From assembly GCA_050247155.1 (NCBI GenBank), contig JBFWUS010000021.1, positions 3,666 through 67,665 on the forward strand: a DNA stretch of 64,000 bases. Direction: 5' to 3'. The notes beneath the pieces were generated by a model, which searched no databases, was not told the origin of the DNA, and saw only the letters and a program-made list of their open reading frames with translations. Shown piece by piece: positions 20,155-58,442 of this stretch (its first letter is position 1; each line of letters begins with the position of its first letter). The DNA is from Rhizobiaceae bacterium. Lineage in GTDB: Bacteria > Pseudomonadota > Alphaproteobacteria > Rhizobiales > Rhizobiaceae. The translations under genes were made by a program, and so were the position numbers.

Positions 20155-20264
20155 TTTTGCTCCTACGCCATCTGCAATGCCGGCCGCCGGATAGGGCCGA
20201 ATCTCGATTGAATGCGACTGCGGTAGCCCGTACTATCCGCGTGGATACAACGAGGATTGCCGCC

Positions 20265-20756
20265 ATGAAATGGATAAGAATGCTTGCGGTCGCCGGGCTG
20301 ATAGCCTGCGGGCCAATTGCCGTGCTGGCGCAAACCACGGCTCCGCCCGCGACGATTGAACTGACCGGCGGCACAACCTCGCCGATAGCGCTGACCCCCG
20401 ACATGCTGGCCGGACTGCCGCAAATAGAGCAGGACGTGACCTTCCAGACGTCGAAGGGTCCGTCGAGCGGGCACTACAAGGGCGTGCTGTTCTGGGAGGT
20501 GCTGAAGGCGAACAAAGCTCTCGACGGGTTGCAGCGCAACGGGGAACTGCAGAAGACGTTTCTCGTCACCGCCAAGGACGATTACAAGATCGCTTTCTCG
20601 GTCGGCGAGATCCATCCCGAATTCGGCAATACGCCACTGATGATCGCAACGGAAGTCGACGGCAAACCGATCGAGGGTGGCCCGCGCATCGTCGTGCCCG
20701 GCGACAAGCGCGGCGCGCGGGCGGTGCAGGAGATTGTGAAGATCGAGATTAGATAG
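20265..20756 (+). CDS. Exported small protein with molybdopterin-oxidoreductase-like fold, antisense within the dpp operon
   Basis: Signal peptide MKWIRMLAVAGLIACGPIAVLA; YKGVLFWEVL, TAKDDYKIAFS, DGKPI, PRIVVPGDKRGARAVQEIVKIEI. Confidence 0.7.
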   Translation: MKWIRMLAVAGLIACGPIAVLAQTTAPPATIELTGGTTSPIALTPDMLAGLPQIEQDVTFQTSKGPSSGHYKGVLFWEVLKANKALDGLQRNGELQKTFLVTAKDDYKIAFSVGEIHPEFGNTPLMIATEVDGKPIEGGPRIVVPGDKRGARAVQEIVKIEIR

Positions 20757-20790
20757 GGTTCGGTCGTTCGTTTCGGCAAGAGTCAATCGG

Positions 20791-20956
20791 CGACGACCCC
20801 CCTCTGCCCTGCCGGGCATCTCCCCCTCATGGGGGGATATTGACAGCGGCACCCTCGCCGCCCGTTCTGAAACTTTCGCGTTTGGCGAAATTGACGCGGC
20901 CGGCTGATCTCCCACCTTGAGGGGGAGATGCCCGGCAGGGCAGAGGGGGGTTGTCG
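20791..20956. repeat. Rhizobial intergenic palindromic repeat (RIME/REP-like)
   Basis: 39-bp inverted repeat CGAC(G/A)ACCCCCCTCTGCCCTGCCGGGCATCTCCCCCTCA, one mismatch. Confidence 0.85.
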
Positions 20957-20977
20957 ACGAGAACGACAAAGCCCGCC

Positions 20978-34070: not shown

Positions 34071-34073
34071 CAT

Positions 34074-34210
34074 TACAGTTGCAATTCGCCAGTCCCTGGT
34101 GAAAAGGGTGCTTTTCGGGCCTCGGAGCGGAGCGTACATTCACGTACGTGAGCATCGAAGCGCAGAAAAACGCCCTTTGCAGCCTGGCATGGCAAAAAGT
34201 GCAATCTGTA
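34074..34210. repeat. 137-bp imperfect palindromic intergenic element with TACAG/CTGTA ends
   Basis: TACAG(A)TTGCA ends; AAAGGGTGCTTTTC vs GAAAAACGCCCTTT (12/14); central CGTAC-ATTCAC-GTACG. Confidence 0.7.
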
Positions 34211-34234
34211 GTGTTGGGGTAAGGACGGCGAAAC

Positions 34235-51570: not shown

Positions 51571-53199
51571 CTATTCGCTGACGACCCCGGCCGGCGCGGT
51601 CTCGATCCGGAAGGCTGCTGAAATCAGCGCGCGCGTGTAGTCATCCTGCGGGCTCTCGAAAATCTGCTTGGCCGGCCCGTATTCGACGATCTTGCCGTTG
51701 CGCATCACGATCACGTCATTCGCCAATGCGCGCACGACCTTGAGGTCGTGGCTGATGAACAGATAGGCGAGATTGTGTTTTTCCTGCAGCGAGCGCAGCA
51801 GGTCGACCACCTGCGCCTGCACGCTCATGTCCAGCGCCGAAGTTGGCTCGTCCAGCATGACGAAGCGCGGGTTCAGCACCATGGCGCGCGCAATCGCCAC
51901 GCGCTGTCGTTGCCCGCCGGAAAACTCGTGCGGGTAACGGAAGCGCGTTTCCGGATCGAGCCCGACTTCCCTCAGCACGTCGACCACGCGCCTGTCTCGC
52001 GCGTCGACGGACAGCTTCGGCTCGTGGATGCGCAAGCCCTCTTCGATGATCTCCGACACCGACATGCGCGGGCTGAGCGACCCGAACGGGTCCTGGAAGA
52101 CGATCTGTAACTCCTTGCGCAGCGGCCGCATGCCCTCGAAGGAAAGCTTCGCGATGTCCTTGCCGTTGAAATGGATATCGCCCTGAGACGAAATCATGCG
52201 CGCCAGAGCCAGGCCCAGCGTCGTCTTGCCCGAACCGGATTCACCGACGACGCCCAGCGTCTGCCCCGCCCGCACGGTCACGTCGATGCCGTCGACGGCC
52301 TTCACATGGCCGACGACACGCCGGAAAAAGCCTTCCTTGATCGGAAACCAGACCTTGACGTCGTCGCCTTTCATCACGGTTGGCGCGCTCTCGTCGGCGG
52401 CTGGCGGCTTGCCCTTCGGCTCGGCGGCAAGCAGTTTCTTCGTATAGTCGTGCTGCGGATTGGCGAAGATTTCCTTCGTCGGCCCAGTCTCGACGATCTT
52501 GCCTTTGGTCATCACGCAGACGCGATCGGCGATCTTGCGCACGATGCCGAGATCATGCGTGATGAACAGCATCGACATGCCGTTCTTCTCCTTCAGCCGC
52601 GCCAGCAACTCGAGGATCTGCGCCTGCACGGTGACATCCAGCGCCGTCGTCGGCTCGTCCGCAATCAGAAGCTCCGGCTCGTTGGCCAGCGCCATGGCGA
52701 TCATCACGCGCTGACGCTGCCCGCCGGAAAGCTGGTGCGGATAGGCGTCGAGCCGCTTCTCCGGGTCGCGAATGCCGACTTCCTTGAACAGTTCCAGCGT
52801 CCGCGCCCGCCCTGCCTTGTCACCCATGCCGCGATGCAGTTTGAGGATTTCCATGACCTGCTGCGAGATCGTGTGCAGCGGGTTGAGCGACGTCATCGGC
52901 TCCTGGAAAATCATGGTGATCTTGTTGCCGCGCACCTGCCGCAACTGCTTTTCATTGGCCTTCAGCAAGTCCTGCCCCTCGAACAGGATCTGTCCGCTCG
53001 GATGGCTCGCCGCCGGGTAAGGCAACAATTTCAGCACTGACAGCGCCGACACTGACTTGCCCGAGCCGGATTCGCCGACCAGCGCCACGGTCTCGCCCTG
53101 GCCGATGTCAAAGGAGATGCAGTCGACCGCGGTTGAAACCTTGCCGCCTTGCGCGAAGGCGACGGAGAGATCGCGGACGGAGAGAAGGGGAGAGGTCAA
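51571..53199 (-). CDS. yejF: Peptide ABC transporter dual ATP-binding protein
   Basis: Two ABC cassettes (GESGSGKS ... LSGGQRQR; GESGSGKT ... FSGGQRQR); TTG start overlaps the PIN stop. Confidence 0.88.
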   Translation of the reverse strand: MTSPLLSVRDLSVAFAQGGKVSTAVDCISFDIGQGETVALVGESGSGKSVSALSVLKLLPYPAASHPSGQILFEGQDLLKANEKQLRQVRGNKITMIFQEPMTSLNPLHTISQQVMEILKLHRGMGDKAGRARTLELFKEVGIRDPEKRLDAYPHQLSGGQRQRVMIAMALANEPELLIADEPTTALDVTVQAQILELLARLKEKNGMSMLFITHDLGIVRKIADRVCVMTKGKIVETGPTKEIFANPQHDYTKKLLAAEPKGKPPAADESAPTVMKGDDVKVWFPIKEGFFRRVVGHVKAVDGIDVTVRAGQTLGVVGESGSGKTTLGLALARMISSQGDIHFNGKDIAKLSFEGMRPLRKELQIVFQDPFGSLSPRMSVSEIIEEGLRIHEPKLSVDARDRRVVDVLREVGLDPETRFRYPHEFSGGQRQRVAIARAMVLNPRFVMLDEPTSALDMSVQAQVVDLLRSLQEKHNLAYLFISHDLKVVRALANDVIVMRNGKIVEYGPAKQIFESPQDDYTRALISAAFRIETAPAGVVSE

Positions 53200-53696
53200 G
53201 ATTGGCGCTTTGCGGTCATTGCGGAAAGATTTTCAAGATTGAGGATGAGAATTTCTACTCTGGCCGAGCCGCTTGTCTGACCAAACCGCGTTTGGGATAT
53301 CACGATTTCAGATGGTAGCCGGCGATCGCCCGTTAAGAAATGACTGCACCCAAAGCCAATTCCAGTCGATAGATGAATCGCGTTTGGTAGCTTGATCGAG
53401 GGATAGCGCGCCCTGATTATGGCTGCACACCAAAGAACCTGCCGGTTAACCGGACCAATAATCAGCCAACCTTCTGGTTGAATCCAATTGTCATAAAGCG
53501 AAATTAAGTCGTCATTCATCATCCGTTGGGGAACAACAAGCAGTTCTGCTAAACTGAGTTCGCTCGCGAATAGAAATTCTTCGCCTGGCATTATGGTGCC
53601 AACCAGATCCAGAATCGCGCGTGAAATCTGGTCTGTGCCTTCTCCCAAGCTTATCAATACGTTGGTGTCGACATAGAGGCGTGAGATGTCGACCAT
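53196..53696 (-). CDS. PIN-domain (VapC-like) toxin
   Basis: LYVDTNVL, SELSLAEL, LPNAIHL, FLTGDRRL. Confidence 0.8.
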   Translation of the reverse strand: MVDISRLYVDTNVLISLGEGTDQISRAILDLVGTIMPGEEFLFASELSLAELLVVPQRMMNDDLISLYDNWIQPEGWLIIGPVNRQVLWCAAIIRARYPSIKLPNAIHLSTGIGFGCSHFLTGDRRLPSEIVISQTRFGQTSGSARVEILILNLENLSAMTAKRQS

Positions 53697-53929
53697 CAAT
53701 TGTCCCATTCATCGCGCAAGTCCCGGACTCGTTGCACGGCCTCTTCTACCGTGACATTGCGCGGCAATTTTGAGCGGACCTGCTCAAGCTGTTTTCGAAT
53801 TTCCGAAAAAGAGGGTCTCTGGATTTCCTCTTCGATAGTGACGCGAACCTTGGCGTCGCCGGGGATACCCTCCCTCATGTCATTGGGGAGATCAGAAGCC
53901 GGATAATGTTCCAGAACGATCTTGTTCAT
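53696..53929 (-). CDS. VapB-like antitoxin (alternative in-frame ATG at 53980)
   Basis: 77-aa ORF whose TGA overlaps the PIN ATG (TGATG); acidic C-terminus RVRDLRDEWDN. Confidence 0.7.
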   Translation of the reverse strand: MNKIVLEHYPASDLPNDMREGIPGDAKVRVTIEEEIQRPSFSEIRKQLEQVRSKLPRNVTVEEAVQRVRDLRDEWDN

Positions 53930-53983
53930 GTACTTTATTCCTCGATACTCGACCCTTCCGTCGACGATACACTTCAACATGAC

Positions 53984-55117
53984 TCATTTAAACGTCTTCC
54001 GTGGATCGAACGCATCGCGCGTTGCCTCGCCGATGAAGATCAGCAGCGACAGCATCACCGACATCACGACGAATCCTGAAAGCCCCAGCCACGGCGCCTG
54101 CAGATTGCGCTGGCCCTGCTTCAGCAGTTCGCCGAGTGATGCTGATCCAGGCGGCAGGCCGAAACCGAGATAGTCGAGCGAGGTGAGCGTGGTGATCGAC
54201 GAATTCAGGATGAACGGCAGGAAGGTCAGCGTCGCCACCATGGCGTTGGGCAGGAGATGCCGGAAGATGATCGTGCGGTTGGGCACGCCGAGCGCGCGCG
54301 CCGCGTTCACATATTCGAAGTTGCGCGCCCGCAGGAATTCGGCGCGCACCACGCCGACGAACGCCACCCAGGAGAAAAGCAGCATCAACCCGAGCAGGAT
54401 GAAGAAACCCGGCGGCAGGATCGCCGCGACGATCATCAGCAGGTAAAGCACGGGGATCGCTGTCCAGATCTCGATGAAGCGCTGAAACAGAAGGTCGGTC
54501 CAGCCGCCGAAATAGCCCTGGATCGCGCCCGCCGCCACGCCGATCACAGCCGAACCCAGCGTCAGGATCAATCCAAACAGCACCGAGATACGAAAACCGT
54601 AGATCACCCGCGCCAGCACATCGCGTGTCTGGTCGTCGGTGCCGAGCCAATTCCAGTTGCCAACCGTACAATTGACGTCACCAGCGCCCTGCGGGTAGCG
54701 CGCACAGCGCGTTTCCTTGTCGTACATCCACGAGGGTTTGGCCGGCGCGGCCTCGGGGATCTCATTGTTGTTGGTGCGGTAGGAATAGCGGATCGGCGGC
54801 CAGATCATCCACCCATTGGCCTTGATCTCGTCCTGGATCACCGGGTCTCGATAGTCGGTCACCGCGAGGAAACCGCCGAATTTCTCCTCCGGATAATCGA
54901 CCATCACCGGGAACAGCAACTCGCCCTTGTATGAGGCGATCACCGGCTTGTCGTTGGCGATAAATTCGGCGAACAGCGACAGCACGAACAGCACAAGGAA
55001 GATCCAGAGCGACCAGTAGCCGCGTCGGTTTGCTTTGAAGTTGGCCCAGCGCCGCTGGTTGAGCGGCGAGAGTTTTGGCCGCTTGGCTGTGGGCGTGATT
55101 GCTTCTGCGATGGCCAT
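53984..55117 (-). CDS. yejE: Peptide ABC transporter permease
   Basis: LSPLNQRRWANFKANRRG, WLGTDDQTRDV, RARNFEYV, DAFDPRK. Confidence 0.9.
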   Translation of the reverse strand: MAIAEAITPTAKRPKLSPLNQRRWANFKANRRGYWSLWIFLVLFVLSLFAEFIANDKPVIASYKGELLFPVMVDYPEEKFGGFLAVTDYRDPVIQDEIKANGWMIWPPIRYSYRTNNNEIPEAAPAKPSWMYDKETRCARYPQGAGDVNCTVGNWNWLGTDDQTRDVLARVIYGFRISVLFGLILTLGSAVIGVAAGAIQGYFGGWTDLLFQRFIEIWTAIPVLYLLMIVAAILPPGFFILLGLMLLFSWVAFVGVVRAEFLRARNFEYVNAARALGVPNRTIIFRHLLPNAMVATLTFLPFILNSSITTLTSLDYLGFGLPPGSASLGELLKQGQRNLQAPWLGLSGFVVMSVMLSLLIFIGEATRDAFDPRKTFK

Positions 55118-55121
55118 TGTT

Positions 55122-55215
55122 ACCCCCACCCCTTACCCCTCCCCTCAAGGGGGAGGGGGATTTTGAGACGCTGACGCCCCCCTCCCCCTTGAGGGGAGGG
55201 GTAAGGGGTGGGGGT
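55122..55215. repeat. G/C-run intergenic palindrome with a perfect 38-bp inverted repeat
   Basis: ACCCCCACCCCTTACCCCTCCCCTCAAGGGGGAGGGGG at 55122-55159 and its exact reverse complement at 55178-55215. Confidence 0.9.
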
Positions 55216-55280
55216 GGTTGACGGCATGTCAGACCGACTTGCTGGCAATTTTCTGTATGCAGATATCGAAGGACGCACCA

Positions 55281-56372
55281 TCAGACGTCCCTCTTCTCGA
55301 AATCGATGCGTGGGTCGATCCACGTATAGGTCAGGTCCGAGATCAGACTGACCACCAACCCCAGCAGCGAGAAGATGTAGAGCGTGGCAAACACCACTGG
55401 ATAATCTCGGTCGAGCACCGAGCGCCAGCCGAGCAGGCCTAGCCCGTCCAACGAAAAGATGTTCTCGATCAGCAGCGAACCTGAGAAGAAGGCCGCGATG
55501 AAAGCGCCGGGAAAGCCGGCGATCACGATCAGCATCGCGTTGCGGAACACATGGCCATAGAGGATCTTTCGTTCCGACAGACCCTTGGCGCGGGCCGTCA
55601 CGACATACTGCTTCTTGATCTCATCGAGGAACGAGTTCTTGGTCAAAAGCGTCGTCGTTGCGAAAGCCGACAGCACCATTGCCGTCAGCGGCAAGGTTAT
55701 GTGCCAGAGATAGTCGAGAATGCGCGCCGGCCAGGAGAGCTGCTCCCAATTGTCCGACGTCAGCCCGCGTAGCGGGAACCAGTCGAAGAACGAGCCGCCG
55801 GCAAACAACACCATCAGCATGATGCCGAACAGGAAACCGGGAATGGCATAGGCGACGATCACCACGCCGCTGGTCCACACGTCGAAGGATGAGCCGTCCT
55901 TCACCGCCTTGCGGATGCCGAGTGGGATCGAGATCAGGTAGGAGATCAGCGTGATCCACAGTCCGATGGTGATCGACACCGGCATTTTTTCAAGGATCAG
56001 CTCCAGTACCGAGATATCGCGAAAATAGCTGTCGCCAAAATCGAAGCGGGCATAATTCCACAGCATCAGGCCGAACCGCTCGAGCGGCGGCTTATCGAAG
56101 CCGAATTGCACTTCCAGCTTCTTGATGAATTCCGGGTCGAGCCCCTGCGAACCACGATATTTATAGCTCTCCGCGCCGGCGTCCATGCCCGCGCCGGCAT
56201 CGCCGCCGCCTCCACCGGAAATCGCATCGCCGCCCTGCTGACCGGTGATGCGCGCGATCACCTGTTCCACCGGCCCGCCCGGCGCGAACTGGATCACCAG
56301 GAACGATACGGCCATGATGCCGAACAGCGTCGGGATCATCAGCAGGATGCGGCGCAGGATATAGCTGGCCAT
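55281..56372 (-). CDS. yejB: Peptide ABC transporter permease
   Basis: [39 protein letters not shown]. Confidence 0.9.
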
Positions 56373-56374
56373 TA

Positions 56375-56553
56375 GCGCCCCTTACCCTCCCCCTTGTGGG
56401 GAGGGTCGATCCTGAGCTTGCGAAGGATCGGGGTGGGGGTGGTTATAGTTTTGAGGGGCGAAAGGTTTTCTTTACCCCCACCCCGTCTCGCGATCACTTG
56501 CGTCGCAAGATGATCGCTCGCCGACCCTCCCCACAAGGGGGAGGGTGGGGCGC
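56375..56553. repeat. Rhizobial intergenic palindromic repeat (CCCTCCCC-TTGT-GGGGAGGG family)
   Basis: Perfect 25-bp inverted repeat 56384-56408 / 56522-56546, GCGCCCC/GGGGCGC ends, inner GGGGTGGGGGT/ACCCCCACCCC pair. Confidence 0.88.
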
Positions 56554-56561
56554 TGTCCACC

Positions 56562-58442
56562 TCAGCCCTTCCCAATCTTCTTCGCCTTTGCCTCGTCAAA
56601 CCACCACATCGCCTCCACCGGAAAGCCATAATCCGGTTTCGGCTCCTTGAAGCCGAACATGTCCCAGAACGCCGCCCGATGATTCGGCAGATAATACGTT
56701 GGAATCCAGTCTTGGCGTGCGCGCAAGACCCGGTCGAGTGCGCGGATGGCGGTTACGAGCTCGTCGCGCGTCTTGGCCTTGCCTGCGGCGGCGATCAGCG
56801 CGTCGATGGCGGGGCTTTCCGTGCCTGGGAAATTGCGTGTGCCAGGCCGCTTGGCGGCGCGTGAATGATAGAGCGTTTCCAATGAATCCGCCGTTGGCGT
56901 GCCGCCGATACTCACCGCGAACCAGTTGGCGTCAAAATCGAAGGCTTGCTGCCGCTGTTCGTACTGGGTTGCATCGACCAGCCTCACCGAAGCGTCGACG
57001 CCGATCTGCCGCAGGCTCTCGACCCATGGCGTGAAAACGCGTACCGCGCCTTCGTCATCCGCCAGCACTTCGCAAACCAGCTTTTCCCCTTTGTCGTTGA
57101 CGGCTGAACCGCCTTGCCGTTTCCATCCGGCCTGTGTGAGCAGCTTTGCGGCTTCCGAAAGGTTCTTGCGATTATTGCCGCTCACTTCGCCGGGCGGTAC
57201 CGTTACCGGTTCTCCAAAAACCTCCGGTGGCAGATCGTTGCGCAAGGGCTCCAGCAGGGTCAGCTCTTGCGGCGAAGGAAGGCCTTCCGCCTTGAACTCT
57301 GAGGCCTCGAAGGTGGATTGCGAGCGGGCATAGGAGCCAAAGAACAGGTTCTGCTTCATCCACTCGAAATTGAAGCACAGCGCGAAGGCCCGCCGCACGC
57401 GGCCATCCCTAAACTGAGGCCTGCGCTGGTTGAGCGCGATGCACTGGAATTGCGGGATCAACTCCTCTGGAAACTCCCGCTTGACCACCTTGCCGTCTTT
57501 CAGCGCCGGAAAATCATAGGCGGTAGCCCACACCCGCGAGGTGAATTCCTGCCGGAAATGGATTTCGCCCTTCTTGAACGCTTCAAAGCCGGCTTGCCGT
57601 TCCTGATAAGTGTCGACGCGGATCACGTCGAAATTGTAGAGGCCTTTGTTGACCGGCAAGTCGACGCCCCAATAGCCAGGCACGCGCTCATATTCGATCC
57701 ATTGACCGGCGGCCATTTTGCCGAATTTATAGGGACCCGATGCCAGCGGAGGCGTCAGAGAAGATGCTTCAAAGTCGTTAGCCGTATAGTAGGCCTTCGG
57801 AAGTACCGGCATCGAGACCACGGTCAACACCAGCATTTCGGCCTGTTTGCCGGTGAAGGTCAGGCGCAAGGTACGCGGGTCGGTTGCGACCGCTTCCTTC
57901 AATTCGGCAAGCGGCAGGGCAAAGTCCGGATATCCCTTTTCCTTGAGAAGGTTATAGCTGAAAGCGGCATCCTCGGCCGTCAGCGGCGTACCGTCGTGCC
58001 AACGTGCTTCCGGACGAATGGAAAATTCGAAGATGTTGCGGTCGTCCGAAATCGTCACGGCGTCGGCAAGCAGGCCGTAGCAGGCATCAGGCTCGTCCAG
58101 GGAGCGCGTCATCAAAGAATCGAAACACATCTCAGTGCGCGGCGGCGCTTCGCCTTTCAGCACGAAAGCGTTGAGCGTGTTGAAGGTCAGCGGACTCTGG
58201 TTATACAGCCAGTTCGGAACGGAAAAATTCATCCGCCCGCCCTTCGGCGCGTCCGGGTTTACCCAGTCGAAATGCTTGAAATCGGCGGGATATTTCAGCT
58301 CTCCGAAGGCGGACAGGCCGTGCACCTTCTGGCCAGACGGCGTTGCCGCGAAAAGCTTTCGGGGCAACGCTGGCGCTGCCGCTGCCGCGCCAAGGCCGGC
58401 AAGGAAAGAGCGGCGGCCGATCCAGTGTGCGCGTCGCATCAT
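56562..58442 (-). CDS. yejA: Peptide ABC substrate-binding protein, YejA-type, Tat signal
   Basis: IGRRSFL Tat motif, HGLSAFGELKYP, NPDAPKGG, SGPYK, NQRRPQF. Confidence 0.88.
   Translation of the reverse strand: MMRRAHWIGRRSFLAGLGAAAAAPALPRKLFAATPSGQKVHGLSAFGELKYPADFKHFDWVNPDAPKGGRMNFSVPNWLYNQSPLTFNTLNAFVLKGEAPPRTEMCFDSLMTRSLDEPDACYGLLADAVTISDDRNIFEFSIRPEARWHDGTPLTAEDAAFSYNLLKEKGYPDFALPLAELKEAVATDPRTLRLTFTGKQAEMLVLTVVSMPVLPKAYYTANDFEASSLTPPLASGPYKFGKMAAGQWIEYERVPGYWGVDLPVNKGLYNFDVIRVDTYQERQAGFEAFKKGEIHFRQEFTSRVWATAYDFPALKDGKVVKREFPEELIPQFQCIALNQRRPQFRDGRVRRAFALCFNFEWMKQNLFFGSYARSQSTFEASEFKAEGLPSPQELTLLEPLRNDLPPEVFGEPVTVPPGEVSGNNRKNLSEAAKLLTQAGWKRQGGSAVNDKGEKLVCEVLADDEGAVRVFTPWVESLRQIGVDASVRLVDATQYEQRQQAFDFDANWFAVSIGGTPTADSLETLYHSRAAKRPGTRNFPGTESPAIDALIAAAGKAKTRDELVTAIRALDRVLRARQDWIPTYYLPNHRAAFWDMFGFKEPKPDYGFPVEAMWWFDEAKAKKIGKG

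Follow-up and report, generated by a model that had tools for sequence, protein, structure and literature searches.

In the window analysed in this study, a 64,000-nt stretch of contig JBFWUS010000021.1 (positions 3,666 to 67,665 of the forward strand) from the Rhizobiaceae assembly GCA_050247155.1, the genes of the YejABEF peptide importer lie on the minus strand in the order yejA, a 189-nt composite palindrome, yejB, a 163-nt insert, yejE, an antitoxin gene, a PIN-domain toxin gene and yejF. In each of the three yej spacers there is an open reading frame (ORF) whose start lies 0-3 nt from the stop of the preceding gene and whose end lies 0-2 nt from the start of the next one. Reading of the minus strand thereby confirmed what a preliminary description of this DNA had reported, namely stop-to-start ORFs within 3 and 2 nt of the flanking genes at three junctions of the operon. 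For the genome as a whole (G000, 99.1% complete), that of a Mesorhizobium/Aquibium-related bacterium within the Rhizobiales, it appears rather probable that repeats surviving at translationally coupled junctions are disproportionately crossed by a stop-to-start open frame, whose predicted translation would hand ribosomes on to the next gene.

Gene calls of our own (4711 genes, 85% coding) were used, and the intergenic regions were compared with one another by BLAST. Dispersed repeats are held by 316 intergenic regions and fall into several families of GC-rich palindromes resembling miniature inverted-repeat transposable elements (MITEs) or repetitive extragenic palindromic (REP) elements. The share of regions with repeats is 12% where the flanking genes are co-directional, 19% where they converge and 5% where they diverge; of the 1749 co-directional regions, 216 carry repeats with at least five partner regions. 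The test set consisted of the 190 co-directional repeat-bearing gaps of 60-400 nt in this one genome. A strict bridge was defined as an ORF whose start codon lies at -4 to +6 relative to the first base of the upstream stop, whose frame remains open, and whose own stop has its first base at -5 to +1 relative to the downstream start. Two controls were applied: a phase shift, in which 1-2 nt were deleted from the middle third of the gap, and a dinucleotide shuffle, in which 8 nt were kept at each edge.

Strict bridges were found in 32 of the 190 repeat gaps, compared with 5.2 ± 1.7 after phase shifting (maximum 9 of 200 replicates) and 13.0 ± 2.6 after shuffling (maximum 21, 200 shuffles). Repeat gaps thus contain about six times as many stop-to-start ORFs as the phase-shift controls and about 2.5 times as many as the composition-matched shuffles; the excess over a composition-matched null, for which the preliminary description had considered a genome-wide count necessary, is borne out. 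Repeat-free gaps gave 27 bridges in 1104, against 19.7 (phase shift) and 26.5 (shuffle). When in-frame runs into the downstream gene were also counted, the number in repeat gaps rose to 47 of 190, compared with 14.5 ± 2.5. Most of the strict bridges in the genome are of the form NTGA...ATGA, and operons with two consecutive bridges occur elsewhere, on contig C12 (52294 to 54011 to 55284) and contig C1 (156946 to 160052 to 161070).

The phase of the open frames relative to both neighbouring genes provides a test that is independent of start and stop calls. Starts of the NTGA or TGATG type can be paired with ATGA or TAATG stops in a single combination, f2/g1. This cell contains 37 of the 161 open frames, whereas the eight other cells average 15.5 (binomial p = 1.4e-5). 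The same cell is uniform with the rest in repeat-free gaps (111 of 994), convergent repeat gaps show no f2 excess (29, 28, 34), and the antisense strand shows no bias, its largest cell holding 23 frames. The f2/g1 excess holds under stricter repeat thresholds and gene-score cut-offs, and it is seen separately in repeat families A, C and E. Since the flanks between element and gene (0-62 nt) differ in both length and sequence, the 37 cases are independent events. Labelling of ABC (ATP-binding cassette) transporter genes by iterated phmmer recovered too few permeases and binding proteins; seven repeat gaps have both neighbours labelled, and f2/g1 accounts for four of the eight open frames there, numbers too small to support a conclusion.

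Three further observations concern repeats read in other ways. The second largest phase cell is f2/g0, with 23 cases. At some tight junctions, among them two outside the window (contig C19, ~37843, and contig C2, ~131933), an ATG on the upstream stop opens a frame that passes through the repeat into the downstream gene, and the palindrome would there be read as an N-terminal protein extension. Within the window, a co-directional gap of 164 nt between plus-strand genes (34071-34234) carries a repeat with 31 partner regions; only its f1 frame is open, and it contains no strict bridge.

The bridges are also associated with junctions that are tightly spaced in a relative. The joined flanks of each junction were searched in a complete genome of the same genus (G007), and a junction was called tight when its genes are separated there by 11 nt or less. 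Among 19 bridged junctions with both flanks mapped, 16 are tight, three measure 26-38 nt and none is wider. Of 15 mapped junctions in a random non-bridged sample, six are tight, four are intermediate and five are wide (45-167 nt); Fisher p = 0.012 for the comparison. The six tight cases without a strict bridge include two in-frame N-terminal extensions that begin at the upstream stop and two more in which the f2/g1 frame is open.

The genes, spacers and predicted bridge ORFs of the first part of the operon, together with yejF, are as follows.

56562..58442, minus strand: yejA, periplasmic peptide-binding protein, 626 aa (Pfam SBP_bac_5, E 3e-65)
56373..56561, minus strand: e1 spacer, 189 nt, of which ~167 nt are a composite palindromic repeat
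56372..56560, minus strand: bridge ORF 1, from GTG 56560 to TAA 56374-56372, 62 codons
55281..56372, minus strand: yejB, permease, 363 aa (Pfam BPD_transp_1, E 2e-31)
55118..55280, minus strand: e2 insert, 163 nt, ~62 nt of unique sequence plus a 94-nt family-A hairpin
55120..55281, minus strand: bridge ORF 2, from the ancestral yejE ATG to TAA 55122-55120, 53 codons
53984..55117, minus strand: yejE, permease, 377 aa from ATG 55117 (Pfam BPD_transp_1 and OppC_N)
51571..53199, minus strand: yejF, double ABC ATPase, 542 aa, TTG start (Pfam ABC_tran twice and oligo_HPY)

A family-5 binding protein, two permeases and a fused double ATPase are present in the order of a YejABEF peptide ABC importer, as judged by Pfam and by synteny with 29 relatives; a DNA search of 40 relatives found the yej locus in 39, and loci were extracted from 29. 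The N-terminus of YejE (MAIAEA) matches the relatives in alignment, and that of YejF aligns with them from residue 1.

The yejB-yejE junction is a clear case of the enriched bridge class: it combines a tight ancestral junction, a retained Shine-Dalgarno (SD) sequence and ATG, a perfect hairpin, the f2/g1 phase and a stop 2 nt from the new start. In relatives the two genes usually overlap as GTCTGATG (TGATG), and none of the other seven same-genus genomes has the e2 insert; their junction reads GTCTGATG. In G000 the sequence is GTC TGATGG, then the 163-nt insert, then ...AACA ATGG CC, with ATGG at each end of the insert. The insertion duplicated ATGG and left the old yejE ATG, with its SD, at the yejB stop, where it now opens bridge ORF 2; the start is thus explained by the insertion event and did not evolve to serve a relay. 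This ATG (55281) shares its A with the yejB TGA, and the ancestral SD, GAGGG, lies 7 nt 5' of it and is kept in relatives. The ORF, which is of phase class f2/g1, then traverses both of the perfect 38-nt hairpin arms (55122-55159 and 55178-55215) and terminates 2 nt short of the relocated yejE ATG. The RNA fold of e2 has an energy of -124.6 kcal/mol (z -10.5), and the repeat has 52 partner intergenic regions. It belongs to family A, in which 28 of 34 strict copies are 99-nt hairpins and 25 of 34 have T..A flanks; the fixed length and these flanks suggest that the family is MITE-like, and the copy in e2 is shorter, at 94 nt, and lacks the 5' T. The TAA of bridge ORF 2 originates in the terminal TA of the element. 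The preliminary description had suggested that TA-ended repeats supply the stop codons, which is true of this ORF but not of bridge ORF 1, whose TAATG derives from an ancestral CTGATG.

Apart from a 15-mer at its start, the unique 62 nt of e2 occur nowhere else in the genome. This 15-mer (55266-55280, minus strand TGGTGCGTCCTTCGA) occurs exactly at six other sites in the genome, with cores of 13-14 nt at several more, and TGGTGCGTCCTTCGA is able to pair with the end of yejB (GAGGGACG). Matches of 55121-55216 to Rfam are eukaryotic microRNA precursor families, all under gathering scores, and were rejected as artefacts of a long perfect hairpin. Apparent yejB/yejE gaps in three distant relatives (L021, L024, L029) were also left out as inserts, since they are probably longer YejE N-termini.

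A mechanism by which such frames may act can be proposed. A ribosome ending the upstream gene would re-initiate immediately, at yejB/yejE on the leftover ancestral yejE SD and ATG. It would then read through the repeat and melt its very stable hairpin, in which the 40 nt ahead of the next start would otherwise be buried. The folds of both e1 and e2 stop 4-5 nt before the next start codon, and de novo initiation there should therefore be hindered. Finally, the ribosome would stop 0-2 nt from the downstream start and re-initiate there, and the proline- and glycine-rich peptide would be a by-product. Translation of the frames, re-initiation, and an origin of the phase bias in selection and not in insertion preference are inferred.

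The yejA-yejB bridge may be a second relay case, or it may be due to chance, and a more-than-chance status is not established for this junction alone. The composite repeat of e1 has outer arms at 56377-56408 and 56522-56553 and inner arms at 56429-56440 and 56474-56485 (inverted-repeat search), with dispersed copies elsewhere in the genome at 81-86% identity and 39 partner intergenic regions. Relatives without e1 have a yejA-yejB gap of 27-50 nt, often ending in CTGATG. The GTG of bridge ORF 1 lies 1 nt past the yejA TGA, its TAA shares its last A with the yejB ATG (TAATG), and its frame is the only one of the three that is open across e1. The closest relative, G004, also has e1, at a different length, with the same frame open, GTG at +4 and TAATG; this comparison was discarded because the G004 assembly is ridden with frameshifts, and the 21-nt net, apparently frame-preserving difference in e1 length between the two genomes was likewise not counted as evidence, as frames in G004 are unreliable.

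At malE-malF and hisJ-hisQ in enterobacteria, REP-type elements protect mRNA and set expression ratios. By the same classical REP/BIME role, the structure of e1 would shield the upstream mRNA from 3' exonucleases and set the ratio of yejA to yejBEF, the ORF being irrelevant. Several features agree with this: e1 follows a binding-protein gene at a junction that is never tight in relatives, independent inserts occupy the same junction in four other genomes (G002, G003, G006 and G009), the repeats of the genome are enriched in convergent and co-directional regions and depleted in divergent ones, and the e1 fold has an energy of -139.7 kcal/mol (z -9.6). However, the stretch just ahead of the yejB ATG is buried in the structure of e1 as well, and an opening of the hairpin would still be needed. 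Such a role, which is compatible with a relay at e2, is possible though on the doubtful side as the account of e1; for the yejA-yejB junction itself, a REP-type function in mRNA stability is at least as likely as a relay.

The bias could also reflect insertion preference rather than selection, if elements land preferentially on overlapping stop and start codons, much as mycobacterial interspersed repetitive units (MIRUs) are said to do at start codons, and duplicate a few bases. The insertion itself would then provide start and stop signals at both ends, and often the phase, and the bridges would be a by-product on which selection never acted. The yejB-yejE junction has the appearance of such an event, with ATGG at both ends of e2 and the ancestral yejE ATG as the start of bridge ORF 2. 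In addition, the fixed 99-nt length and T..A flanks of family A are typical of a MITE that duplicates TA, and start codons occur at U-1 in 48% of repeat gaps compared with 27% of other gaps. What argues against this explanation is that the unique flanks between element and gene vary from 0 to 62 nt, so that the phase is not set by the element, that a TA target is missing from tight ATGA and TGATG junctions, and that the bias is seen in at least three unrelated families with no f2 bias in convergent gaps. A target-site duplication of ATGA was ruled out as a general explanation, given that the element-gene flanks are unique and variable in length. Insertion preference as the source of the bias is therefore considered unlikely.

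Chance in stop-poor sequence is still less probable. GC-rich palindromes, together with the codons that NTGA and ATGA supply for free, could have yielded three yej bridges as a coincidence picked by eye: two of the three frames of e2 are open, shuffled sequences still yield 13 bridges in 190 gaps, the f1/g1 class of bridge ORF 1 is not enriched, and the start windows admit three start codons at several positions. Yet the observed number of bridges exceeds that in every one of the 200 shuffles and in all phase-shift replicates, the f2/g1 excess is accompanied by its own internal controls, and bridged junctions tend to be tight in G007. That the mini-ORFs encode functional small proteins is hardly credible: start codons are present and some have SD-like sequences, but the predicted peptides are low-complexity, proline- and glycine-rich products dictated by the palindromes (e.g. 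TPTPNPSPQGGGG...SPSPLWGGVRGGG) with no family matches, their unique ends differ between copies, and the frames of the yejE-antitoxin spacer differ between genomes.

The yejE-yejF junction is occupied by genes rather than by a repeat. In relatives the two genes have an ancestral ATGA overlap, which is found as a plain ATGA in four genomes of the genus. In G000 it holds the following features.

53930..53980, minus strand: leader, 17 codons in frame with the antitoxin, from ATG 53980, 3 nt past the yejE TGA, to the antitoxin start
53696..53929, minus strand: antitoxin, 77 aa, likely start ATG 53929
53196..53696, minus strand: PIN-domain toxin, 166 aa (Pfam PIN, E 7e-7, residues 12-131)

The antitoxin start was placed at ATG 53929 on the basis that homologues begin at MNK(I/V)V. 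The protein has no Pfam or NCBIfam match; its homologues, 45-53% identical, come from other genera, in which they too precede a PIN gene at this junction. The toxin gene overlaps both of its neighbours, by its start with the antitoxin stop (TGATG) and by its TGA with the yejF TTG (TTGA). In relatives, PIN homologues of equal length are found at this junction. Homologues of both toxin-antitoxin (TA) genes, with 35-53% identity, are located between yejE and yejF in a Mesorhizobium metagenome-assembled genome, Aquibium carbonis and Jiella endophytica. Other occupants of the site are a PIN homologue in G009, the antitoxin only in G017, an unrelated classical VapBC pair in G003 and a third PIN module in G004; the occupied loci are as follows.

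53196-53983 of the window, and loci L003, L017, L019, L031, L032 and L034; G004, contig C11, 5083-6013: docking-site loci for TA modules at yejE/yejF

PIN modules thus dock recurrently at yejE/yejF, and the pair in G000 is a conserved long-term resident and not a recent parasite. As ordinary genes docked at the yejE/yejF overlap, the two TA genes have normal overlapping junctions. The arrangement resembles VapBC-type (PIN) type II systems in that a small upstream antitoxin gene overlaps a co-oriented PIN gene. Unlike typical VapBC, the pair sits within a transporter operon and has an overlapping junction at either end, its site is conserved across genera, its antitoxin lacks a family match, and different PIN modules occur at the same site within one genus.

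The leader ahead of the antitoxin is a further bridge case. The spacer between yejE and the antitoxin gene, 70-90 nt in length, is bridged in all four readable loci. In L031, L032 and L003 the bridge is a separate micro-ORF, which begins at the yejE stop (GTGA/TGATG) and finishes at the start of the antitoxin gene (ATGA), and these three loci outside G000 represent two unrelated TA families with differing frames. The spacer thus fits the relay idea, as the frame differs and continuity is kept. No relevant report on yejABEF together with toxin-antitoxin genes was found in the literature searched, and the docking of PIN modules is of separate interest, since the importer that hosts these TA cassettes is linked to the handling of antimicrobial peptides.

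Several results weigh against a ribosome relay as the reason why these repeats persist. About 40% of insertions at G007-tight junctions are strictly bridged and about 60% are not; a bridge is thus favoured but not obligatory. Bridge ORF 1 belongs to phase class f1/g1, which has 18 cases against the mean of 15.5 and no genome-wide enrichment, and the independent yejA-yejB inserts of G002, G003 and G006 have the g1 frame open with no start near the yejA stop. The test relies on one genome and on a crude gene caller of our own, which mis-set the yejE start by 12 nt. In the 2.07 Mb of G004 analysed, 35 repeat gaps contained one strict bridge and no f2/g1 open frame, a result that was discarded on account of the frameshift-ridden assembly (49 of 106 orthologues with at least 80% identity are split across frames, 70% is called coding, and it is unfit for frame arguments). 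The 400 kb of G006 analysed contain a single repeat gap. Finally, since the TA pair consists of real genes held at yejE/yejF in several genera, it fits poorly with a parasitic insertion that carries a bridge. The preliminary description had proposed that palindromes and TA modules alike persist inside operons by virtue of such a bridge. For the repeats this finds support in the f2/g1 excess and the link to tight junctions, but it suits the TA pair poorly; overall, that interpretation is partly supported by the positive genome-wide test and by the link to ancestral coupling.

The preliminary description had also pointed to a looser version between dppC and dppD, and this arrangement is real.

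20155..20977, minus strand: dppC-dppD insert, 823 nt, with an opposite-strand gene and a family-C repeat; sense ORF 20969..20163

The sense ORF, of 268 codons, is separated by 8 nt from the dppC stop at one end and by 8 nt from the start of dppD at the other. The gene on the opposite strand, to which this ORF is antisense, encodes a small protein with a signal peptide (MKWIRMLAVAGL...).

If the relay exists, many intergenic repeats of GC-rich genomes would be obligatorily translated relays and not untranslated spacers, and annotation and ribosome profiling should expect dozens of repeat-derived micro-ORFs per genome. Such a relay would also account for the spread of selfish palindromes into tightly coupled operons with polar effects avoided. 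As a simple sequence test, the phase bias of the open frames can be applied to any genome.

Among known repeats, the elements described here resemble REP/BIME elements and rhizobial RIMEs, as they are GC-rich mosaic palindromes present in hundreds of copies after genes or in operons, including sites after ABC binding-protein genes. The traits of REP and REPIN elements are seen in the many copies of GC-rich extragenic palindromes and in their depletion from divergent (promoter) regions. Unlike REP elements, they are not accompanied by a RAYT gene: no match to Y1_Tnp (PF01797) was found in G000, which is 99.1% complete, while control genomes gave matches. Therefore, the elements are not classical REPINs. 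Family A also differs from REP elements by its fixed length and T..A flanks and resembles MITEs of the IS630/Tc1-mariner type in being a 99-nt inverted repeat with T..A flanks in 25 of 34 copies. No paper linking REP, RIME or MITE palindromes to translational coupling was found in the searchable literature.

The closest parallel is provided by MIRUs, mobile repeats which insert at start codons and whose internal ORF couples to the gene at a -4 spacing, so that the impact of insertion is minimal (Supply et al. 1997, Mol Microbiol 26:991, as summarised in a 2025 review of translational coupling, PMC12548453). The preliminary description had seen in the bridges a class of repeat-derived micro-ORFs; such a class is not new, as the principle is that of MIRUs (PMC12548453). 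As with MIRUs, dispersed short repeats lie between co-oriented genes and the ends of the ORF overlap the flanking stop and start, and both yej repeats have a stop-to-start sense ORF in this position. MIRUs are direct or tandem units of 40-100 bp from an actinobacterial family, whereas the elements here are perfect or composite palindromes of 94-170 nt without tandem units, from several unrelated families, in an alphaproteobacterial host, and do not belong to the MIRU sequence family. Furthermore, bridging is here a statistical tendency seen in 17-25% of copies and is not built into each of them. One possible generalisation, on which our judgement is evenly balanced, is that in repeat-rich alphaproteobacteria the invasion of coupled junctions by palindromes is filtered by translational phase. 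In this genome, some 30-50 proline- and glycine-rich micro-ORFs would then be translated only for hairpin unwinding and ribosome relay, PIN cassettes would use the yejE/yejF overlap by the same logic, and the MIRU principle would become a general rule for selfish DNA in operons. Overall, it appears that the bridges are the logic of MIRUs realised in MITE- or REP-like palindromes, which, with their translation predicted, would work alike without being members of the MIRU family.

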